Made by a program: the position numbers and the translations under genes. A stretch of DNA of 38,603 nt. It comes from Candidatus Uhrbacteria bacterium (GTDB lineage Bacteria; Patescibacteriota; Patescibacteriia; UBA9934). The notes beneath the pieces are model-generated. The model ran no database searches. It was not told where the DNA came from and worked only from the letters and a program-made list of their open reading frames with translations. Positions 3,970-38,530 of this stretch are shown here, one piece after another (the stretch's first letter is position 1; each line of letters begins with the position of its first letter). The stretch is taken from the NCBI GenBank assembly GCA_030688135.1, contig JAUYIW010000029.1, positions 1 through 38,603 on the forward strand, given 5' to 3'.

Positions 3970-4118
3970 AAATATACTATAAATTTACTATATTATATCA
4001 CATTTTAGAGCGTTGAGTTCCTTTATGCTTAGGTCTGTCCATGGCATATCTATTCATTGGATATTTGGCATAAATGCTGAAATTAACTACAGATTAGTCG
4101 TTGCCGACGACTTTACGC

Positions 4119-4147
4119 TTGACAAAAATACCAATTTAGTGTATAGT
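4119..4147 (+). promoter_or_regulatory. Sigma70-type promoter TTGACA-17-TATAGT for the cold-shock gene
   Basis: TTGACA at 4119-4124, a 17-nt spacer, and TATAGT at 4142-4147. This implies a leader of about 80 nt, which is usual for csp mRNAs. Confidence 0.6.
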
Positions 4148-4235
4148 GGCGAATAAGCAAAGAGTACTCACACGTGGAGATCCGTCGAATTTCCCACAGA
4201 GGCTAAATTTGCGGATTATTCATTATACACTACCT

Positions 4236-4433
4236 ATGACTGGTACAATCAAAAGATTGACAGACAAGGGGTTCGGTTTCATTGCCGTTGAAGGTGAAGA
4301 GAAAGATCTTTTCTTCCACTCATCTTCACTTGTTGATGTAACATTCGAAGAGCTCCGAGAAGGTGATGCTGTAACATTTGACACAGAAGACTCTGACAAG
4401 GGTCCACGTGCTACAAACGTTCAGCGCGCTTAA
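4236..4433 (+). CDS. csp: Cold-shock domain protein (CspA family)
   Basis: MTGTIKRLTDKGFGFI... carries the RNP1-like KGFGFI motif. I chose the start at Met31 of the listed ORF because the promoter -10 box overlaps the GTG at 4146. Confidence 0.85.
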   Translation: MTGTIKRLTDKGFGFIAVEGEEKDLFFHSSSLVDVTFEELREGDAVTFDTEDSDKGPRATNVQRA

Positions 4434-4904: not shown

Positions 4905-6308
4905 TTATCTTTTGCTTCGTCTTTGGGTACTGCGTCGTCCACGTCCGGCTCCACCACTACGTGCAGGTCCTCTATGACCCGCACTAGACGACCCTCCGCC
5001 TGATCTTGCGCCACCTGCACGACCACTGCTACTACCTCCGCTTCGGCCACCACTATATCCTCCGCCACCCGATGATCGTCCTTGCGACGATTTTTTGTAG
5101 TAGCTTCTGCCACCTGGGCGACTAGATGTTGATTGCCTTCGCTGATCTTCGTCAAATTTTGCTCTATTAATTGGTTCAAACTTTTTACCGGCAAGAGACT
5201 TAATAGGAAGCGTAAGATTTATCAGTTTTTCAATTTGTTTAATATCTTTTTTCTGTTCAGGCGCAGCGAACGAGATTGCTTTTCCAGATTTTCCAGCACG
5301 AGCAGTTCTTCCAATTCGGTGAACGTAATCCTCAATTTGATCAGGCAGATCATAGTTTACAACCAGCTGAATGTTGTCTACGTCGATTCCACGTGAAGCA
5401 ATGTCGGTGGCAACTAAAATTCTATACTTGCCGGTTGAGAATCCCTTTAGTGCATTTTGTCTTTGATTTTGTGATCTATTCGAATGTATTTCGTCTACAG
5501 CAAAACCCATTCTTCTAATATCTCGTGTAATTTTTGCAGCTCCATGTTTGGTTCTGCTGAACACTAAAACAGAGCCTTTATATTCTTTGAGTAGTTCTTG
5601 TAGTAATCCAATTTTTTGATCTCGTGGAACAATGAAAACTTCTTGATCAACATTTTCAACAGTAGTTCCTGGTTTTGTAACCTCAATTCTAAGTGGCTTT
5701 CGCATGTACTGACTTGCAATTGCCGCAATCTCTTTTGGCATTGTTGCTGAAAATAACATTGTTTGGCGATCCTGTGGGATAAAGGCAAGAATCCGCTTTA
5801 GTTGTGGCGCAAAGCCCATGTCAAGCATACGGTCGGCTTCGTCTAGCACAAGCATACCAACCTCTGAAAGTGATATGTATTTTTGCTCAACTAGGTCAAT
5901 TAGCCGTCCAGGTGTTGCGACAATTATGTGTGGTCTTGCTTTAAGCTGTCTAATCTGCGATCCGGGATTAGTTCCACCAATTAAAATAGCGGTTCGAAGT
6001 CCGGATTTACCTGCAACTTTTCTTAGTGTTTCATCAACCTGCACGGCAAGTTCGCGAGTAGGAAGTAATATCAACCCCATTTGTTGAGTAGCTGAAACAT
6101 GCTGCAACATTGGAATTGAAAACGCTAATGTCTTACCAGAACCGGTTTGGGCAATACCTACAACGTCTTCACCGGAAGTAGCAATAGGAATGGCCTTGTA
6201 TTGAATAGGCGTTGGATGAGCAAAACCAAGCGCTTGAACGCGCTTTAATAATCCCGGTTTAATTCCTAAACCATTAAAATCCTGATGTTCTAATTCTTCT
6301 CTTGGCAT
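4905..6308 (-). CDS. DEAD-box ATP-dependent RNA helicase with a Gly/Arg/Ser-rich C-terminal tail
   Basis: Helicase motifs AQTGSGKT, PTRELA, DEAD, SAT and HRIGRTAR. The tail reads GGRSGGSSSGRAGGARSGG. Confidence 0.92.
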   Translation of the reverse strand: MPREELEHQDFNGLGIKPGLLKRVQALGFAHPTPIQYKAIPIATSGEDVVGIAQTGSGKTLAFSIPMLQHVSATQQMGLILLPTRELAVQVDETLRKVAGKSGLRTAILIGGTNPGSQIRQLKARPHIIVATPGRLIDLVEQKYISLSEVGMLVLDEADRMLDMGFAPQLKRILAFIPQDRQTMLFSATMPKEIAAIASQYMRKPLRIEVTKPGTTVENVDQEVFIVPRDQKIGLLQELLKEYKGSVLVFSRTKHGAAKITRDIRRMGFAVDEIHSNRSQNQRQNALKGFSTGKYRILVATDIASRGIDVDNIQLVVNYDLPDQIEDYVHRIGRTARAGKSGKAISFAAPEQKKDIKQIEKLINLTLPIKSLAGKKFEPINRAKFDEDQRRQSTSSRPGGRSYYKKSSQGRSSGGGGYSGGRSGGSSSGRAGGARSGGGSSSAGHRGPARSGGAGRGRRSTQRRSKR

Positions 6309-6556: not shown

Positions 6557-7666
6557 ATGATAAAGGAAAAAATTCAACAATCCATACGCTTCCTTCGTAT
6601 TCAGGAAATGTATGACAAATACGAACGTCTTTTACTTCCTGCAATGCTTGTAGTTGGTCTTATTGTTGATTTTATTACATTTAGAACAATCAAAGTTAGC
6701 ACGGCTTTTACGATTTTATGCGTGTATTTAGTTATTGCCGGTAGCACGATTGCCTTTATTAATATTTTTGACAGCAGAATAAGGCGTGGTAGAAATAGAT
6801 TAAGGTACCTACGACTTGCTTCTCCTCTTATTGTGCAATTTACATTTGGAGCTTTGCTTAGTGCGTCATTAATTTTTTATTGGTTTAGTGGAACGGTGTC
6901 GGTTAGTTGGCCACTTATTTTTATTATCGCATTTCTAATAGTTTCAAATGACGTATTCAAAGACAGATACCTTTCGCCAAAGGTGCAAATTGGCGTTTAT
7001 TACTTTGCATTGTTTTCACTATCGTCATTAATATTCCCGTTTATATTTAACTCAATTAGCGCTTGGGTTTTTGTATTAGGGGGTGTTGTAAGCGCACTGT
7101 TAATGTATGCTTACATAACTTTGCTCGCAAAGTCAGTAGAAGACATTCGAAATGTTAAAATAAAGTTATTTTGGGTTATTGGTTTAATTTTTATTTTTTT
7201 AAATGGCTTGTATTTTTTAAATGTGATTCCGCCAATCCCTCTTTCCCTTCGAGAAGCCGGCGTTTATCACAATGTCAAGCAATCTAGCGGTTTGTATATG
7301 TTGAGCGGAGAAAGGGAATCGTTACTAGATAAGATTATTCCAGGGCAAACGATTCATATTGAAAAGGGCCAGAGCGTTTACGCGTATTCTGCAATATTTG
7401 CCCCAGCTGAATTAAACACGGTGATTGTTCATAACTGGGAGTATTTTGACTCAGACACACGCAGATGGATTAGCAAAGATAAACTAACCTTTAGAATTTA
7501 CGGTGGTCGTGACGAAGGATTCCGTGGATATTCTGCTAAGTCTCAAGTTAGCGCAGGAAAGTGGAGAGTTAGTGTTGAAACAGAACGGGGTCAGGTATTG
7601 GGCCGATTACGTTTTGGAGTTGAAATTGTGGATGTTGCGCCAGATCTTATAAAATCAACAAGATAG
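6557..7666 (+). CDS. Polytopic membrane protein with a C-terminal soluble domain (DUF2914-like)
   Basis: About 6 TM helices, then ...GKWRVSVETERGQVLGRLRFGV. The family assignment is from memory of the DUF2914 pattern. Confidence 0.5.
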   Translation: MIKEKIQQSIRFLRIQEMYDKYERLLLPAMLVVGLIVDFITFRTIKVSTAFTILCVYLVIAGSTIAFINIFDSRIRRGRNRLRYLRLASPLIVQFTFGALLSASLIFYWFSGTVSVSWPLIFIIAFLIVSNDVFKDRYLSPKVQIGVYYFALFSLSSLIFPFIFNSISAWVFVLGGVVSALLMYAYITLLAKSVEDIRNVKIKLFWVIGLIFIFLNGLYFLNVIPPIPLSLREAGVYHNVKQSSGLYMLSGERESLLDKIIPGQTIHIEKGQSVYAYSAIFAPAELNTVIVHNWEYFDSDTRRWISKDKLTFRIYGGRDEGFRGYSAKSQVSAGKWRVSVETERGQVLGRLRFGVEIVDVAPDLIKSTR

Positions 7667-18007: not shown

Positions 18008-18032
18008 GGGGTCAGGTCGTTACTTGTAGCAT
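18008..18032. repeat. Left arm of a perfect 25-bp inverted repeat (GGGGTCAGGTCGTTACTTGTAGCAT)
   Basis: Its exact reverse complement is at 18898-18922. Confidence 0.95.
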
Positions 18033-18036
18033 TTTC

Positions 18037-18045
18037 TGGTATAAT
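18037..18045 (+). promoter_or_regulatory. Extended -10 box TGGTATAAT
   Basis: It lies 4 nt after the left repeat arm and places the transcription start at about 18052, so the ATG at 18053 would be leaderless. Confidence 0.45.
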
Positions 18046-18052
18046 GAGGGGT

Positions 18053-18898
18053 ATGGTCAGGCCACTACGCATCAAATATCCTGGCGCTCTTTACCACGTC
18101 ACTAGTCGTGGAAACGCCTACCAAGATATCTTTCTCAACGACAAAGATCGTCGTGCGTTTTTGAATAACCTGAAATATTGCATAAAACTTCATAACCTTA
18201 TATGCCACGCATATTGTCTTATGAACAATCATTATCATTTACTCATAGAGACACCGGATGGAAACTTGTCACAGGCAATGCGTGACATAAACGGCAACTA
18301 CACGCAAGGATTCAACGCACGCCATAAATGCGTAGGACATGTGATGCAAGGTCGGTACAAAGCATTTCTCGTCGAGAAAGAACCTTATTTACTCGAAGTC
18401 GTACGTTATATTGTCAACAATCCTGTTGAGGCAAAAATGGTTGAACATCCCAAAAACTGGAAATGGAGTAGCTTTTGTGCGACAGCCGGATTTGTGAAGT
18501 CGCCAGCTTGGCTTATGACGGATTTTACGCTCAGCTTATTTTCTAAGAAAAGAAATGAGGCTCAGAAACAGTATCAAGATTTTGTGAAAGAAGGTATGGA
18601 ACGCGGTTCACCGTATGATGACGTGAAAGAAGGCGTTATTCTAGGAAGTCCTCAGTTCATCGGGTGGGTTTGGGAAAATTTTAAGGAGTTAGAGCTCGTA
18701 ACAGAGGTGAAAACGTCCAACCGGATGATCGGCAGGCCTAGTTTAGAGGACTTATTCTATGACATTACAAAGAAAAAACAACGGGACAATGCCATGAGAG
18801 TAGCTAGAGTACGGGCTGGCTACTCAGTAACTGAAATAGCTAATCATCTAGGACTTCACAGAACGACGGTTAGTAGAATCTTGAATAGTTCGCTATAA
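18053..18898 (+). CDS. Y1 (HUH) transposase of the IS200/RAYT type with a C-terminal DnaA-C-like HTH
   Basis: N-terminus MVRPLRIKYPGALYHVTSRGN. HUH motif NNHYHLLIE. Catalytic-Tyr region VRYIVNNPVEAKMV. C-terminal HTH MRVARVRAGYSVTEIANHLGLHRTTVSRIL. An alternative start is at 18044. Confidence 0.85.
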   Translation: MVRPLRIKYPGALYHVTSRGNAYQDIFLNDKDRRAFLNNLKYCIKLHNLICHAYCLMNNHYHLLIETPDGNLSQAMRDINGNYTQGFNARHKCVGHVMQGRYKAFLVEKEPYLLEVVRYIVNNPVEAKMVEHPKNWKWSSFCATAGFVKSPAWLMTDFTLSLFSKKRNEAQKQYQDFVKEGMERGSPYDDVKEGVILGSPQFIGWVWENFKELELVTEVKTSNRMIGRPSLEDLFYDITKKKQRDNAMRVARVRAGYSVTEIANHLGLHRTTVSRILNSSL

Positions 18899-18922
18899 TG
18901 CTACAAGTAACGACCTGACCCC
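18898..18922. repeat. Right arm of the 25-bp inverted repeat (ATGCTACAAGTAACGACCTGACCCC)
   Basis: It overlaps the last base of the transposase stop codon. Confidence 0.95.
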
Positions 18923-18955: not shown

Positions 18956-18970
18956 GACCTGACCCCTTTA
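18956..18970. repeat. Second copy of GACCTGACCCCTTTA (first copy at 18912-18926)
   Basis: Identical 15-mers 44 nt apart. Confidence 0.9.
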
Positions 18971-18977
18971 TTACCTC

Positions 18978-31621: not shown

Positions 31622-31673
31622 CTTACAACAAGGCTCGGCATCAGCTAGCCAGGTACCTACTGATGTACTGATT

Positions 31674-31698
31674 GTTACAGATATACAGATCGACAGAC
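31674..31698 (+). repeat. Degenerate heptamer arm (GT-TACAGAT-A-TACAGAT-CG-ACAGAC)
   Basis: It resembles the TACRRAC-heptamer arms at 32889, 35649 and 37431. It lies in the atpB-atpE spacer. Confidence 0.4.
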
Positions 31699-31767: not shown

Positions 31768-32001
<234 letters not shown>

Positions 32002-32005
32002 GATT

Positions 32006-32024
32006 GTCACAAAACTGGCGAGCT
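32006..32024 (+). repeat. 19-nt direct repeat GTCACAAAACTGGCGAGCT, copy 1
   Basis: Identical to 32139-32157. Confidence 0.95.
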
Positions 32025-32029
32025 TACAT

Positions 32030-32094
32030 TTCACGGGTCCCTGTCATCTTCTCGACGTACATCTAGGTACGCCTCAAAGATGACTTCCCGTTCA
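32030..32094 (+). repeat. Rod-like hairpin R1 (TTCACGGG ... CCCGTTCA)
   Basis: Nested pairings: ACGGG/CCCGT, GTCATCTT/AAGATGAC and CGTAC/GTACG. It shares the TTCACGGG/CCCGTTCA basal motif with 38363-38491. Confidence 0.7.
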
Positions 32095-32138
32095 AAGTAA
32101 TCTCATCCATTTTTGAACAATCTTACACAACATAGGTG

Positions 32139-32888: not shown

Positions 32889-32969
32889 GCTACAGACCTA
32901 CGAACGGTACGAACCTACAAACATAGACGTTCTCGGTTTGTAAGTCTGTATAGTTCGTATGTCTGTAAC
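32889..32969. repeat. 81-bp imperfect palindrome: two inverted 34-nt arms, each of four TACRRAC heptamers, around a 13-nt centre (an empty MITE-like element)
   Basis: Arm 32889-32922 compared with the reverse complement of 32936-32969. It fills the atpF-atpH spacer almost exactly. Confidence 0.85.
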
Positions 32970-33413: not shown

Positions 33414-34952
33414 ATGTATATGACTAACAAATCAGACATAATTGAACAGCTTCGAAAACAAGTTGAAGTATTCAAGGCTGACGCCAACGTTGAATCGGTA
33501 GGAACCGTACTTTCTGTTGCAGACGGTGTTATTACGATGAGCGGACTATCAAATGCAAAAGCACAGGAAATGCTTGAGTTTGAAGACGGAACCATTGGAG
33601 TTGCTCTAAACGTTGAAGAAGAAACCATTGGTGCTGTAGTCTTAGGCGACGCTGGAAGTATTAACGAGGGCGACACTGTAAAATCAACTGGACGAGTTCT
33701 ATCGATTCCAGTCGGAGAACAAATGATAGGCAGAGTCGTTAGTCCTCTTGGAATTGCTATTGATGGTAAAGGTGATATCAAAACAGAAAATTACAATCCT
33801 GTAGAAAAGATTGCGCCTGGTGTTATGACTCGTAAATCTGTTTCTGTTGCATTGCAAACTGGAATTAAGGCAATTGATACATTGATTCCAATCGGACGAG
33901 GTCAGCGTGAGCTTATTATTGGCGACCGTCAGACTGGAAAAACAGCAATTGCGATTGATACGATCATTAATCAAAAAGGCGAGAATGTTAAATGTGTTTA
34001 TGTAGCTATTGGTCAAAAAGAATCAAAAATTGCTAGTATTACAGCCAAGCTCGAAGCAGCTGGAGCTATGGAATACACAACTATCGTTCTTGCAGGAGCG
34101 TCTGATCCAGCATCGCTAAGTTACATTGCTCCATACTCTGGTTGTGCGATTGCTGAATACTTCATGGAAAAAGGAGAGGACGTGCTAATAATTTTTGATG
34201 ATCTTTCAAAGCATGCATGGGCATACCGAGAAATTTCACTTCTGCTAAAGCGCCCACCAGGACGTGAAGCTTATCCAGGTGATGTTTTTTACTTACACTC
34301 AAGACTTTTAGAGCGTTCAGCTCGGCTTAATGAAAAATACGGTGGAGGTTCGATTACTGCACTTCCAATTATTGAAACTCAAGCTGGGGACGTATCTGCC
34401 TACATTCCAACAAACGTTATTTCTATTACCGATGGTCAGATCTTTCTGGAGAGTGATCTTTTCTACAAAGGTCAAAGGCCAGCATTGAACGTTGGGCTTT
34501 CGGTTTCTCGTGTAGGTTCGGCAGCTCAAACTAAAGCAATTAAAGCAGTTTCGAAAACTCTAAAAGTTGACCTTGCACAGTTCCGCGAACTCGAAGCTTT
34601 TGCGCAGTTTGCAACAGACCTTGACGAAGCAACAAAGAAACAGCTCGAACGCGGACGACGCGCAATGGAAGTAATGAAGCAAAAACAATACGCTCCAATG
34701 ACCGTTGCAGAACAAACTTCGATCATCTTTGCGCTAAACAATGGTGATCTTGATAACATAGCGCCAGAACGAATTGAAGAGTTCGAAGCTAAATTCCTAG
34801 ATTACATGCGAGCAAGCGGAAAGGAAGTGCTCGACGACATCTCTGCAACAAAAGATTTAACTGACGAAACTGGCAAGAAACTGGAGAAAATGATAAACGA
34901 CTTTAAGAGTACTTTCGCTCCGGAAGTAAAAGATGAAAAAAGCGTAATCTAA
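33414..34952 (+). CDS. atpA: F1 ATP synthase subunit alpha
   Basis: GDRQTGKT Walker A and a conserved alpha core. Confidence 0.95.
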
Positions 34953-34960
34953 AACTAACT

Positions 34961-34988
34961 GAGCACCCACAATGGGATGCCCCTACAC
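34961..34988 (+). repeat. REP-like element E1 (hairpin + CCCCTACAC)
   Basis: GAGCACCCACAATGGGATGCCCCTACAC, in the atpA-atpG spacer. Confidence 0.8.
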
Positions 34989-35015
34989 AGTTTTTTTCAA
35001 CCCATAAGCTACAAC

Positions 35016-35957
35016 ATGGCTGCTAACGCAAAAACAATTCGACGCCGCATCAAATCTATTGCTAACACTGGTAAGATTACCAAAGCAATGGAGCTTGTTG
35101 CTGCAAGTAAAATGCAACGCGCAGTAAACTCAGTGCTTGGTACACGACCTTATGCGCGAATGGCATGGGAAACTATTAATGCTGTTGCAAAGTCTGCTGG
35201 AGAAGTTACGCATCCTCTACTAGTTGAAAATAAAGAGGCAAAGAAAACTCTTTTTATACTTTTTACGTCAGACAGAGGTCTCGCTGGTGCGCTAAATACC
35301 AACATGAATAAAGCTGCTGCAAAAGCCGTTGCGCAGATTAAAGGTGATATTGAAGCAATAGCAGTAGGGAAGCGTGGAAACGCAGCGTTAAGACGAGCTA
35401 ACGTTCCTGTGATTGCAAGTTTTGAAGGACTTACAAACAAACCAATGTTTAAAGACGTACTTCCGATTGGCACACTTGTGCTTGAGGAATATCAGAAAGG
35501 AACTTACAAAGATGTAATAATTGGATATACTGACTTTATTTCTGCATTAAATCAAATTCCAAAAATACTGAAACTGTTACCGCTCGGTCAGCCGGAAGAT
35601 ATGGAAGGACTTGGAGAGGTTGGGAATAGAACGGAAAGTGAGAATGTAGTTACAGACCTACAAACTGTACAGAACTACAGAAAGGACGAATCTCGAGAGT
35701 ACAAATTTGAACCAAGTCCGGAAGAAGTGCTGAATAGAATACTTCCAAGACTAGTTGAAACAATGATTTATCAAGCGCTACTTGAGTCAGCTGCAAGTGA
35801 ACACTCAGCAAGAATGATGGCAATGAGAAGTGCGTCAGATAACGCTCAAGATATGTTGAAAGAATTAACCTTAACATATAACCAAATTCGCCAGGCTGGA
35901 ATTACGCAAGAAATTGCTGAAATAAGTGGAGGGGCTGCGGCGATCAATAATAAATAA
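35016..35957 (+). CDS. atpG: F1 ATP synthase subunit gamma
   Basis: MAANAKTIRRRIKSIANTGKITKAMELVAASKMQRA is the canonical gamma N-terminus. The listed start at 34977 lies inside repeat E1. Confidence 0.9.
   Translation: MAANAKTIRRRIKSIANTGKITKAMELVAASKMQRAVNSVLGTRPYARMAWETINAVAKSAGEVTHPLLVENKEAKKTLFILFTSDRGLAGALNTNMNKAAAKAVAQIKGDIEAIAVGKRGNAALRRANVPVIASFEGLTNKPMFKDVLPIGTLVLEEYQKGTYKDVIIGYTDFISALNQIPKILKLLPLGQPEDMEGLGEVGNRTESENVVTDLQTVQNYRKDESREYKFEPSPEEVLNRILPRLVETMIYQALLESAASEHSARMMAMRSASDNAQDMLKELTLTYNQIRQAGITQEIAEISGGAAAINNK
35649..35682 (+). repeat. Single heptamer arm inside the atpG coding sequence (GT-TACAGAC-C-TACAAAC-TG-TACAGAA-C-TACAGAA)
   Basis: It has the same 4-heptamer layout and 1-2-1 spacing as the intergenic arms. 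It is in frame and encodes VTDLQTVQNYRK. Confidence 0.7.
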
Positions 35958-35980
35958 ACACCGCATGCTGAAACATGCAG

Positions 35981-36012
35981 GACAACCACATAGGGTTGCC
36001 CCTACACGATCC
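35981..36012 (+). repeat. REP-like element E2
   Basis: GACAACCACATAGGGTTGCCCCTACACGATCC, in the atpG-atpD spacer. Confidence 0.8.
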
Positions 36013-36045
36013 GAAGCACATCAACCTATAAGCTATAACCTATAA

Positions 36046-37428
<1,383 letters not shown>

Positions 37429-37430
37429 TC

Positions 37431-37893
37431 GTTACAAACCTACGAACTATACAAACTTACAGACCAGTTTACGAAATATGGAGTTTATTTATCCAGATGA
37501 GAGCTATCAGATACTAGGTGTGCTGTTTGAAATAAATAAAGAGATCGGTTATGGTCACAGGGAGAAATACTACCAAAAAGCTATCGCAGCACATTTCGAT
37601 TTTCTTACAATTCCTTATAAGAAATAATTAAAAGTAGACCTAATTGCATGTAATCAAGTCGTAGGCCATTACTTCATAGACTTCCTTGTTTTCGACAAAA
37701 TAATCCTGGAAATAAAATCAACTAATAATTTTAGAGTCTCTGATTACAGACAGGTTAAGTCATACTTAAACTCAACAAATCTAAAACTCGGAATTCTAGC
37801 AACGTTCAGTCCAACAGGTATCCGCTACCGTAGAGTCCTTAATCTATATTGAACCTGCAGTCTGTAAGTCTGTACCGTCTGTAGGTCTGTAAC
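37431..37893 (+). mobile_element. MITE-like cassette: inverted 34-nt heptamer arms (37431-37464 and 37860-37893) flanking a GxxExxY-family pseudogene
   Basis: The arms match at 28 of 34 positions when one is reverse-complemented. The cassette starts 3 nt after the atpD stop and ends 6 nt before the atpC ATG. Confidence 0.6.
37478..37852 (+). pseudogene. GxxExxY-family (PD-(D/E)XK-like) protein gene with one in-frame TAA (37625-37627)
   Basis: Hand translation: MEFIYPDESYQILGVLFEINKEIGYGHREKYYQKAIAAHFDFLTIPYKK*LKVDLIACNQVVGHYFIDFLVFDKIILEIKS...LKLGILATFSPTGIRYRRVLNLY*. The GHREKYY motif and D...EIK are present. Confidence 0.65.
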
Positions 37894-37899
37894 TATATT

Positions 37900-38337
37900 A
37901 TGTCAAAGATTTCACTAAAAATCATAACCCCAGAACGAGTCGTATTCGAAGACTCGGTTGATTCGATTTCTGCAACTACTGAAATGGGTGAGGTTACAAT
38001 CCTGCCAAACCATGTTCCGCTAGTTTCACTTCTGCGCTCTGGCGAAATGCGACTTCGAGATAATGGACAGGAATCACTTTTAGCAGTCTCCACAGGGCTT
38101 ATAGAGGTTCGTGGTGGAAATCAAATAATAATATTAGCTGATTCTGCTGAGCGTTCAGAAGAATTAGACCTTGAAAAGATTGAAGAGGCCAAAAAACTAG
38201 CTGAAAAACGTGTGGAAGAAGCAAGGAATATGAACGATGTTGCCTATGCCGATGCTCTAGTTCATCTAGAGCGAGAGCTGGCTAGACATCGCGTGGCGAC
38301 AAAAAAGAAATACCGCGATGTTGGAAGACAGTCATAA
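37900..38337 (+). CDS. atpC: F1 ATP synthase subunit epsilon
   Basis: LKIITPERVVFEDSVDSISATTEMGEVTILPNHVPLVS is typical of epsilon. Confidence 0.9.
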   Translation: MSKISLKIITPERVVFEDSVDSISATTEMGEVTILPNHVPLVSLLRSGEMRLRDNGQESLLAVSTGLIEVRGGNQIIILADSAERSEELDLEKIEEAKKLAEKRVEEARNMNDVAYADALVHLERELARHRVATKKKYRDVGRQS

Positions 38338-38362
38338 GTGGGATCTGGCGAGTATATTATAT

Positions 38363-38491
38363 CTTGAATTACGAAACTCGCGATCTTTGCGTTCACGGGC
38401 GCCCGTCGCCCCCGTTCTCCCTACGTTTTAGTAGGGTTCACGGGGATCGACAGCCCGTTCATGCGAATCTCATCGAGTTTCGTAATTCAAG
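38363..38491 (+). repeat. 129-nt rod-like hairpin R2 with perfect 18-bp basal stem
   Basis: Basal stem CTTGAATTACGAAACTCG (38363-38380) / CGAGTTTCGTAATTCAAG (38474-38491). Inner pairings are GCGTTCACGGGC/GCCCGTTCATGC, CCCCG/CGGGG and, at the apex, CCCTAC-GTTTTA-GTAGGG. Confidence 0.8.
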
Positions 38492-38501
38492 GTATTATAA
38501 G

Positions 38502-38530
38502 ACCGGCTCTGAATTGAGCTGGTTTTATTT
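38502..38530 (+). terminator. Intrinsic terminator at the end of the atp operon
   Basis: Hairpin ACCGGCTC-TGAATT-GAGCTGGT followed by TTTATTT. Confidence 0.65.

Follow-up and report, generated by a model that had tools for sequence, protein, structure and literature searches.

Between two ATP synthase genes of a Patescibacteria genome lies a small broken nuclease gene enclosed by inverted arms of 7-base repeats. This cassette occupies positions 37431-37893 of the window, the whole stretch of 38,603 nucleotides (nt) that was analysed (Candidatus Uhrbacteria bacterium, GenBank assembly GCA_030688135.1, contig JAUYIW010000029.1, forward strand). Its gene belongs to the GxxExxY family, and arms of the same general design flank GxxExxY genes in many other genomes, where they share the comings and goings of the gene. 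With slightly better than even confidence, we read the region as the decayed remains of a mobile, selfish cassette whose arms and GxxExxY nuclease gene would form one unit; the nuclease would initiate copying into new sites, and a stem formed by the arms would limit harm to the invaded operon.

The cassette in the atp operon

The left arm (37431-37464, plus strand) reads GT-TACAAAC-C-TACGAAC-TA-TACAAAC-T-TACAGAC, and the right arm (37860-37893, minus strand) reads, as its reverse complement, GT-TACAGAC-C-TACAGAC-GG-TACAGAC-T-TACAGAC. Each arm carries four TACRRAC heptamers at spacings of 1-2-1, namely TACAAAC, TACGAAC, TACAAAC and TACAGAC on the left and four copies of TACAGAC on the right. 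A repeat search of the window reproduced the inverted repeat of the original prediction, with arms of 34 nt each, 28 of 34 positions (82%) complementary and 395 nt enclosed. An arm profile built from the arms of the window and of a related locus, L085, recovers all four arms already known in the window, with nhmmer E-values of 1.4e-9 for the left arm of the cassette and 1.2e-10 for the right. TACRRAC occurs 31 times in the window as against 14.8 +/- 3.8 times in shuffled sequences, which never reach the observed count; 16 of the 31 copies fall in two clusters, the cassette arms and a palindrome at 32889-32969, and every heptamer array of the window is located in the atp operon.

The whole element measures 463 nt in an atpD-atpC spacer of 471 nt. 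Upstream lies atpD (F1 beta subunit; 36055-37428, plus strand, stop codon at 37426-37428) and downstream atpC (F1 epsilon subunit; 37900-38337, plus strand, ATG at 37900), both co-directional with the cassette. The cassette is wedged between stop and start codon, as had been proposed, with 2 nt (TC) between the atpD stop and the left arm and 6 nt (TATATT) between the right arm and the atpC ATG. No target-site duplication was found at the window copies of the arm family, and an Rfam search of the window returned neither rRNA nor any other family. Scans for promoters and terminators gave nothing above chance inside the cassette, the sole convincing terminator standing downstream of atpC, at 38497-38528.

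Within the arms lies the pseudogene (TIGR04256 / PF13366 PDDEXK_3; 37478-37852, plus strand), 124 codons and a TGA stop with one nonsense codon, and the only GxxExxY gene of the window. Its frame translates as MEFIYPDESYQILGVLFEINKEIGYGHREKYY...KK*LKVD...DFLVFDKIILEIK...NLY*, and the open reading frame (ORF) is split, just as originally described, by a single in-frame TAA at codon 50 (37625-37627, plus strand). The family assignment, which had been made from the letters alone, also holds: with the stop masked, the ORF scores 83.4 bits against TIGR04256 (cut-off 35; profile positions 2-115 of 116) and 83 bits against the full length of PF13366 PDDEXK_3 (cut-off 22). The eponymous motif appears as GHREKYY at residues 26-32 (G26xxE29xxY32), and D68, E78-x-K80 and Q92xxxY96, invariant columns in an alignment with 25 homologues, are kept. 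The TAA sits where homologues have an almost invariant Gln, within a K-E-Q motif; the simplest history is therefore a change from CAA to TAA, and the inactivation is judged recent, since all downstream invariant residues (D68, E78, K80, Q92 and Y96) persist. A second assembly (Logan SRR13727534, contig L001) has the same TAA; it spans window positions 34260-38389 with one single-nucleotide polymorphism, elsewhere than the TAA, and may share reads with the first. The part of the ORF 3' of the TAA has no plausible in-frame start, and the gene is not intact. Recoding of the stop codon was considered and rejected, as atpF, which the window also contains, ends in TAA.

Three of the seven in-frame stops carried by six GxxExxY pseudogenes fall at alignment positions 49-50, in the K-E-Q motif, which lies between the N-terminal helices and the catalytic core. 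The carriers are the window (37625-37627), L043 (gene 4001-4363) and L080 (gene 4001-4366). This recurrence may be coincidence or recurrent silencing of the nuclease, the rough chance p being ~0.03-0.07.

A search with the repaired window protein found relatives only in the candidate phyla radiation (CPR)/Patescibacteria, at most 55% identical. No solved relative was found in the PDB by sequence, and PHROGs and PADLOC gave marginal matches only. The AlphaFold model of a homologue, P0004 (mean predicted local distance difference test score 91.6), has two N-terminal helices followed by a beta-sheet core. Foldseek matched this model to Cas4 SSO0001, lambda exonuclease, MGME1 and the AddB/AdnA nuclease domains (E 3e-4 to 1e-2, template-modelling score ~0.5 on the query), all of them RecB-like PD-(D/E)XK nucleases, and more weakly to tRNA-splicing and cap-snatching endonucleases. 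The invariant E29, D68, E78-x-K80 and Q92-x-x-x-Y96 fit the motif set of RecB-like PD-(D/E)XK enzymes. A profile search places 17,697 clusters at 50% identity in the family (E <= 1e-3). Many members are ~260-275 amino acids (aa) long and carry two GxxExxY domains in tandem (e.g. P0216, P0220 and P0224), which suggests that the working unit may be a dimer and that single-chain pseudo-dimers may have arisen from it, by analogy with LAGLIDADG homing endonucleases. A survey of PD-(D/E)XK families gives the function of PDDEXK_3 as 'Unknown' (PMC3424549).

Heptamer arms around other GxxExxY genes

A check set beforehand, on the original proposal that heptamer arms also flank other GxxExxY genes, bore this out. 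A scan of one genome per species yielded 80 GxxExxY loci from other genomes, mostly CPR/Patescibacteria with a few Bacteroidota, and at each the upstream flank was aligned locally with the reverse complement of the downstream flank. An arm score of at least 36 was reached at 62 of the 75 testable loci. None of 400 pseudo-genes placed at random in these loci reached it, and 14 of 253 other genes did. Arms are not confined to the operon of the window, nor does the ORF fall outside its family, the two outcomes that had been named as speaking against the original prediction.

The arms usually consist of two heptamers, a gap of 3-5 nt and two further heptamers, with the general consensus TAC-N-AAW; TACGAAT, TACAAAT, TACTAAT and TACGAAA are the commonest 7-mers repeated in them, and a crude heptamer-chain detector counted 297 heptamer clusters in the loci compared with 74 in shuffles. 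TAC-N-AAW is kept from CPR to Bacteroidota, in company with proteins ~39-55% identical to the repaired window protein. Protein clade had a small effect on heptamer type (49.6% vs 47.0% identity), small because most of the clade uses TAC-N-AAW. The median element is 484 nt long; the median distance is 0 nt from the upstream stop to the left arm and 5 nt from the right arm to the following start codon. At 66 of 71 loci both neighbours run in the same direction as the gene (baseline for ordinary neighbouring genes of these loci 78% per pair; p = 1.4e-9), and the sites that recur are spacers between partner genes of tight operons, namely rpsG/fusA (7-8 loci), pheS/pheT, gatC/gatA and pilB/pilC.

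An accident of low-complexity or slippage-prone sequence, unrelated to the ORF, is scarcely credible as the source of these arms. Heptamer arrays can grow by replication slippage and the genome is fairly AT-rich (41% GC), but the heptamer count exceeds that of shuffles, no control reached the arm score, the profile E-values of the cassette arms are of the order of 1e-9 to 1e-10, and the pattern is repeated in dozens of unrelated genomes; the controls refute chance.

What the arms enclose was assessed within the 613 kb around GxxExxY genes, where it is a GxxExxY gene or nothing. Where both arms of a pair have four units or more, the distance between them is bimodal, being 358-473 nt if a GxxExxY gene is enclosed and 0-75 nt otherwise; no other cargo was seen between such pairs. 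These observations bear on the idea that the arms are REPIN-like repeats (paired repetitive extragenic palindromic, REP, sequences) moved by a Y1/HUH transposase of the IS200-like RAYT/TIRYT kind, a GxxExxY gene having landed in a palindrome loop. The window does encode a Y1 transposase (PF01797, 39.7 bits; 284 aa with a C-terminal helix-turn-helix; ORF 18044-18898), within an element at 18008-18922 bounded by a perfect 26-nt inverted repeat, GGGGTCAGGTCGTTACTTGTAGCATT, with a partial third copy of the repeat end at 18958-18972. Moreover, many arms terminate in CTAC...GTAG, which tags RAYT-associated REPs (PMC3733652), and insertion without target duplication together with strand bias is typical of IS200/IS605-type mechanisms. 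Against this, GGGGTCAGGTCGTTACTTGTAGCATT bears no relation to the heptamer arms and is not found complete anywhere else in the window, the window arms end in GTAAC rather than GTAG, no arm pair in the 613 kb encloses a Y1 transposase, and an association of arms with GxxExxY genes at 62 of 75 loci across phyla goes beyond accidental landing. We regard this explanation as very improbable; 18008-18922 resembles an element of the REPtron/TIRtron type, distinct from the heptamer cassettes.

In metagenome contigs, the arm pattern TACRRACNTACRRACNNTACRRACNTACRRAC matched three unrelated heptamer or satellite arrays, and a TACGAAW-type arm pattern had no matches in viral contigs. At ~2000-2200 of L083, a GC-rich metagenome contig, a long array of GTTCGTA (the reverse complement of TACGAAC) stands beside inverted CGAACCCTACGAA units; such heptamers therefore form long arrays in unrelated bacteria too. 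Distant members of the family on plasmids are co-directional and inside operons, with non-canonical flanking repeats; no cyanobacterial plasmid was among the matches found for these plasmid-borne members. On a Sphingomonas parapaucimobilis plasmid (L093, NZ_CP155749.1), a distant GxxExxY gene at 1483-1911 lies co-directionally between fabD and fabG, preceded by ACGCGAAG-type units and followed after 2 nt by fabG. The operon-wedged habit therefore exists outside CPR as well, with non-canonical flanks.

Mobility, decay and the role of the arms

The cassette of the window had been taken for an insertion, and its closest relatives agree. In L085, the nearest found (AtpD 90% identical), the atpD-atpC spacer is 23 nt long and in L086 19 nt, with neither arms nor gene. 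The TACRRAC arm family is present in L085 as full palindromes in the atpB-atpE and atpG-atpD spacers, with near-identical 25-nt loops, and as a left arm only in the atpF-atpH spacer, where the window has a full palindrome, which makes five arms in total; the atp spacers of the more distant relatives L086-L088 hold no TACRRAC arms. Elsewhere, two Moranbacteria loci, L007 and L009, have pheS genes 80.5% and pheT genes 75% identical around arms and gene that are 97-98% identical, and the step in identity coincides with the arm ends. A similar, weaker trend is seen in L036 and L040 (flanks 93-95%, cassette 98%). L049 and L059 share a site whose flanks are 83% and 81% identical at the aa level, with GxxExxY proteins only 64% identical and heptamers that differ throughout (uniformly TACAAAT at one locus, uniformly TACTAAT at its counterpart). 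A single lineage (proteins 76-82% identical) occupies three non-homologous sites; its termini, TCTTTAC...GTAAAGA, are the same at each, and none of the three shows a target-site duplication. As far as comparison of sequences can establish, these loci show arms and gene travelling as one sharp-ended mobile unit. The unit lodges exactly between a stop and the next co-directional start, its presence varies at the same spacer between close relatives, it has sometimes diverged much less than the sequence around it, and its insertions at unrelated sites have left no target-site duplication.

The unit also decays. Stop codons interrupt 6 of 81 GxxExxY copies, and the 80 loci contain 16 tight palindromes. 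One cargo-less copy, at 2561-2701 of L005, retains intact arms, the left one identical to that of a full copy 1.3 kb away, and between them ~55 nt from the start and ~12-20 nt from the end of a GxxExxY ORF. Because both ORF ends remain, this palindrome is, judging by its sequence, an internal-deletion derivative of a GxxExxY cassette. These cases show a cassette decaying by nonsense mutation, as in the window, and by internal deletion into palindromes and solo arms, of which the window holds examples. The palindrome at 32889-32969, with arms at 32889-32922 and 32936-32969 around a 13-nt loop, fills the atpF-atpH spacer between the atpF stop and the atpH ATG (RNA fold z = -5.6). One arm profile matches it and the cassette, as expected from the original proposal that they belong to one family, and the similar placement and shared ending GTCTGTAAC-TA..TAT-ATG noted there were found again. 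We take it for a miniature derivative, beside which the cassette of the window can be called 'autonomous-like' by descent only, being a pseudogene. A degenerate solo arm at 31658-31690 (plus strand; TACTGAT-G-TACTGAT-TGT-TACAGAT-A-TACAGAT) lies in the atpB-atpE spacer and is a weak match (E 1.7).

The sequence after this solo arm resembles the loop of the full palindrome at 1753-1843 of L085, in the same atpB-atpE spacer. A further arm-like array of 33 nt, at 35649-35681 (plus strand; GT-TACAGAC-C-TACAAAC-TG-TACAGAA-C-TACAGA; E 9.4e-8, outside the training set), lies in frame within atpG, in a variable loop of the gamma subunit. By eye it is identical to the left arm of the cassette at 27 of 34 positions, and the gamma subunit of the window is several residues longer than its relatives at this loop. 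A heptamer arm seems to have been absorbed into the atpG coding sequence.

How such a unit might move can be sketched from these features. The heptamers would be sequence-specific sites for the encoded nuclease, which would break DNA at arm-bearing or empty sites; host recombination would then copy the cassette in, with arms or flanking genes as homology, so that the element would spread by homing or gene conversion and not by classical transposition. At the RNA level, by analogy, the arms may pair in the polycistronic transcript as a ~34-bp stem that loops out the foreign ORF, has the stop and start codons of the host genes at its base and is probably cut by RNase III, as in the intervening sequences of 23S rRNA. 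Such a stem would explain the tolerance of the element inside essential operons. The roles of the arms as DNA sites and as RNA stem are not mutually exclusive, and both the part of the nuclease in mobility and the action of the arms as protein sites or as an RNase III stem are inferred. In the window, where the nuclease is dead, the copy would now be a passive remnant. That the word itself is recognised, most economically by the encoded protein, is argued by three features taken together: the word is conserved, its position 4 is free, and arm words are specific to their cargo. Different cargo lineages within one genome carry different arm words, and a second, divergent GxxExxY gene in the same loci has arms of TACGCTGA-type units.

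Several results weigh against this account. The cassette is clearly less diverged than its flanks in two of eight orthologous pairs and not in the other six. The identical proteins P0017 and P0053 each occur at one site across many samples, and movement is therefore not frequent. The atpD-atpC junction before insertion is not reconstructable because the spacers of the relatives are unalignable. Around distant GxxExxY genes (Treponema, Fusobacteria, Sphingomonas and Persicobacter) the flanking repeats are less canonical or direct. As to the RNA part of the account, the arms do pair in the predicted minimum-free-energy fold of the transcript, but heptamer position 4 varies freely, without compensation between the arms; heptamers in mirror positions are barely more alike than others (5.78 vs 5.62 of 7), and arm mismatches on the sense strand show no excess of G-U-compatible pairs (73 vs 95). 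On these grounds, no selection for an RNA stem is claimed. Finally, six other small ORFs flanked by inverted repeats in the same loci belong to the S23p family (PF05635) and lie in operon spacers (L004 2119-2508; L007 6958-7317; L012 4748-5119 and 6356-6706; L016 2276-2638; L042 5020-5382), with arms built of other tandem repeats (AAAGTCA, TGGTATT, TCTAAAT and others). These cassettes are armed without encoding a nuclease, and arms may therefore not be nuclease targets.

The S23p cassettes also lend weight to an alternative in which the GxxExxY gene, of some unrelated function, is a passenger in an insulating stem that acts at the RNA level, by RNase III processing or by coupling translation, and spreads, without any part played by the nuclease, through horizontal transfer or ordinary homologous recombination. 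Besides non-nuclease genes in the same kind of cassette, it can appeal to a size and stem that match those of rRNA intervening sequences, to arms that lie right against the stop and start codons of the host genes and that predicted folds show as paired, and to a strong sense-orientation bias, which fits dependence on host transcription. Pairing alone, however, leaves the conservation of TAC-N-AAW across phyla unexplained, and likewise the uncompensated position 4, the lack of a G-U bias and an arm motif specific to the cargo lineage within one genome; identical termini at three non-homologous sites need more than homologous recombination of flanks. We consider this alternative unlikely.

Also improbable, in our estimate, is a host regulatory system in which the palindromes are cis elements of operons, serving mRNA processing or stability in the manner of REPs or bacterial interspersed mosaic elements, and the GxxExxY protein is a trans-acting endonuclease that cuts them and whose gene lies, for autoregulation, within one of its targets. 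The palindromes do stand between genes needed in unequal amounts (rpsG/fusA, atpF/atpH, atpD/atpC and gatC/gatA), some enzymes of the PD-(D/E)XK fold cut RNA, and endonucleases that cut RNA are among the weaker fold matches. Such a system is at odds with the patchy distribution of the cassettes between close relatives, with the frequency of pseudogenes and deletion derivatives, with the several divergent paralogues, of different heptamer variants, found in a single genome, and with a cassette that is less diverged than its flanks in L007/L009. In the window, moreover, the palindromes have survived although the one GxxExxY gene in its 38.6 kb is dead.

Other small repeats were noted along the way. 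The window contains a second, unrelated family of palindromic repeats in two copies, at 31999-32125 in the atpE-atpF spacer and at 38355-38499 after atpC, which have the blocks AAACTxGCGA, TTCACGGG, CCCGTTCA and AATCTCATC in common; the likely terminator of the atp operon (38497-38528) follows the latter copy. In L085, the atpD-atpC spacer (7375-7397) and the atpA-atpG spacer (4924-4953) are made of yet another short repeat, GGACCTATAGGACCCATAC / GTCCTATTGGTCCTATAGGACC, and different small repeats seem to occupy the atp spacers of different lineages. At 5500-5790 of L069, a 96-aa GIY-YIG ORF is flanked by copies of a small hairpin.

Relation to known systems and meaning

The closest parallel in size and layout is the 23S rRNA intervening sequence (IVS) with an S23p ORF (PF05635) of Leptospira and Coxiella; that of Coxiella measures 428-444 nt, contains a small ORF, has a terminal stem of 28 bp and is cleaved by RNase III (PMC4990558). 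IVS and cassette have in common a presumably selfish nature, a length of ~430-480 nt, terminal inverted repeats able to make a stem of ~28-34 bp, one ORF of ~120 aa, sense orientation in a highly expressed transcription unit, and a sporadic distribution with decay of the ORF (PMC4990558); S23p-family genes of the CPR loci studied here sit in similar operon-spacer cassettes armed with tandem repeats. The IVS, however, is located in helix 25 or 45 of 23S rRNA, whereas the element of the window is in an mRNA operon spacer, atpD-atpC. Its ORF encodes a four-helix bundle and not a PD-(D/E)XK nuclease, its arms are merely complementary where those of the cassette are arrays of conserved heptamers, and its excision by RNase III is known, while that of the cassette is suggested by analogy only.

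REPtrons and TIRtrons (RAYT/TIRYT, REPINs; PMC3733652) likewise combine a small nuclease-type gene between inverted repeat copies with gene-less intergenic copies of the repeat, mostly just downstream of coding regions and inside operons, and their repeat families are lineage-specific and make no target-site duplication. They differ in enzyme, a Y1/HUH transposase (PF01797) as opposed to a PF13366 nuclease, and in repeats, REPs being single short hairpins with a GTAG tag and the cassette arms 2+2 heptamer arrays. Unlike the cassette, they have by design no long stem across the gene. Miniature inverted-repeat transposable elements (MITEs) and their autonomous insertion sequences share terminal inverted repeats and non-coding derivatives produced by internal deletion, but the cassette has neither a DDE transposase nor a target-site duplication, and its strict sense orientation and placement from stop to start are atypical of MITEs.

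Free-standing homing endonuclease genes (phage T4 seg/mob; I-Ssp6803I) offer a further likeness. I-Ssp6803I is itself a PD-(D/E)XK homing enzyme. Such genes are small nuclease ORFs wedged between conserved genes, present or absent at the same spacer and able to be younger than their flanks, and they pass through a cycle of invasion, degeneration and loss, of which the window copy would represent the degenerate phase. In contrast to the cassette, they have no terminal inverted repeats or miniature derivatives and are found mostly in phages, introns and inteins. Homing endonucleases cleave the empty target, whereas such cleavage by GxxExxY proteins is putative.

The STRR and TAACTGA heptamer repeats of cyanobacteria, Beggiatoaceae and Bacteroidetes (PMC4679880) also form intergenic arrays that end a few nt before start codons, in phyla that are rich in GxxExxY genes as well. 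Their arrays are, however, direct, contiguous and mostly not inverted, they differ in sequence, and no associated gene was reported (PMC4679880); a link between them and GxxExxY cassettes is conjecture. The element shares features with each of these systems and fails one defining feature of each, be it location and ORF family, enzyme class, terminal repeats or target duplication. A literature search, with most subscription journals and database comment fields outside its reach, found no published link between GxxExxY genes and heptamer arms. We place the element with palindrome-flanked selfish small-ORF cassettes, and there is a fair chance that it will prove a distinct class once its mechanism is known.

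The practical conclusion for the window is modest: its atpD-atpC spacer holds a dead selfish insert and not a missing operon gene. For the family, the sharply bounded cis element, with 2+2 heptamers in inverted arms and a position from stop to start, turns GxxExxY/PDDEXK_3, large and of unassigned function, into a testable system. It also suggests a possible origin for the short palindromes and arrays of heptamers that litter the spacers within CPR operons and mislead gene callers. A bolder generalisation, which we advance tentatively and with somewhat less than even confidence, is that heptamer-armed cassettes are a widespread and hitherto unrecognised class of mobile element, an 'intervening sequence' of operons, in which a RecB-like nuclease of 125 residues would read the 7-bp iterons of the arms around its gene and drive copy-in between operon genes while the stem keeps the operon working. 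Were this true, it would give the GxxExxY family a function and account for gene-less palindromes, solo arrays and possibly the STRR/TAACTGA repeats. The ORF-bearing rRNA intervening sequences, a 30-year-old puzzle whose mobility and purpose are still unexplained (PMC4990558), would join the same framework, and so small a nuclease with a 7-bp recognition word would be attractive as a tool.

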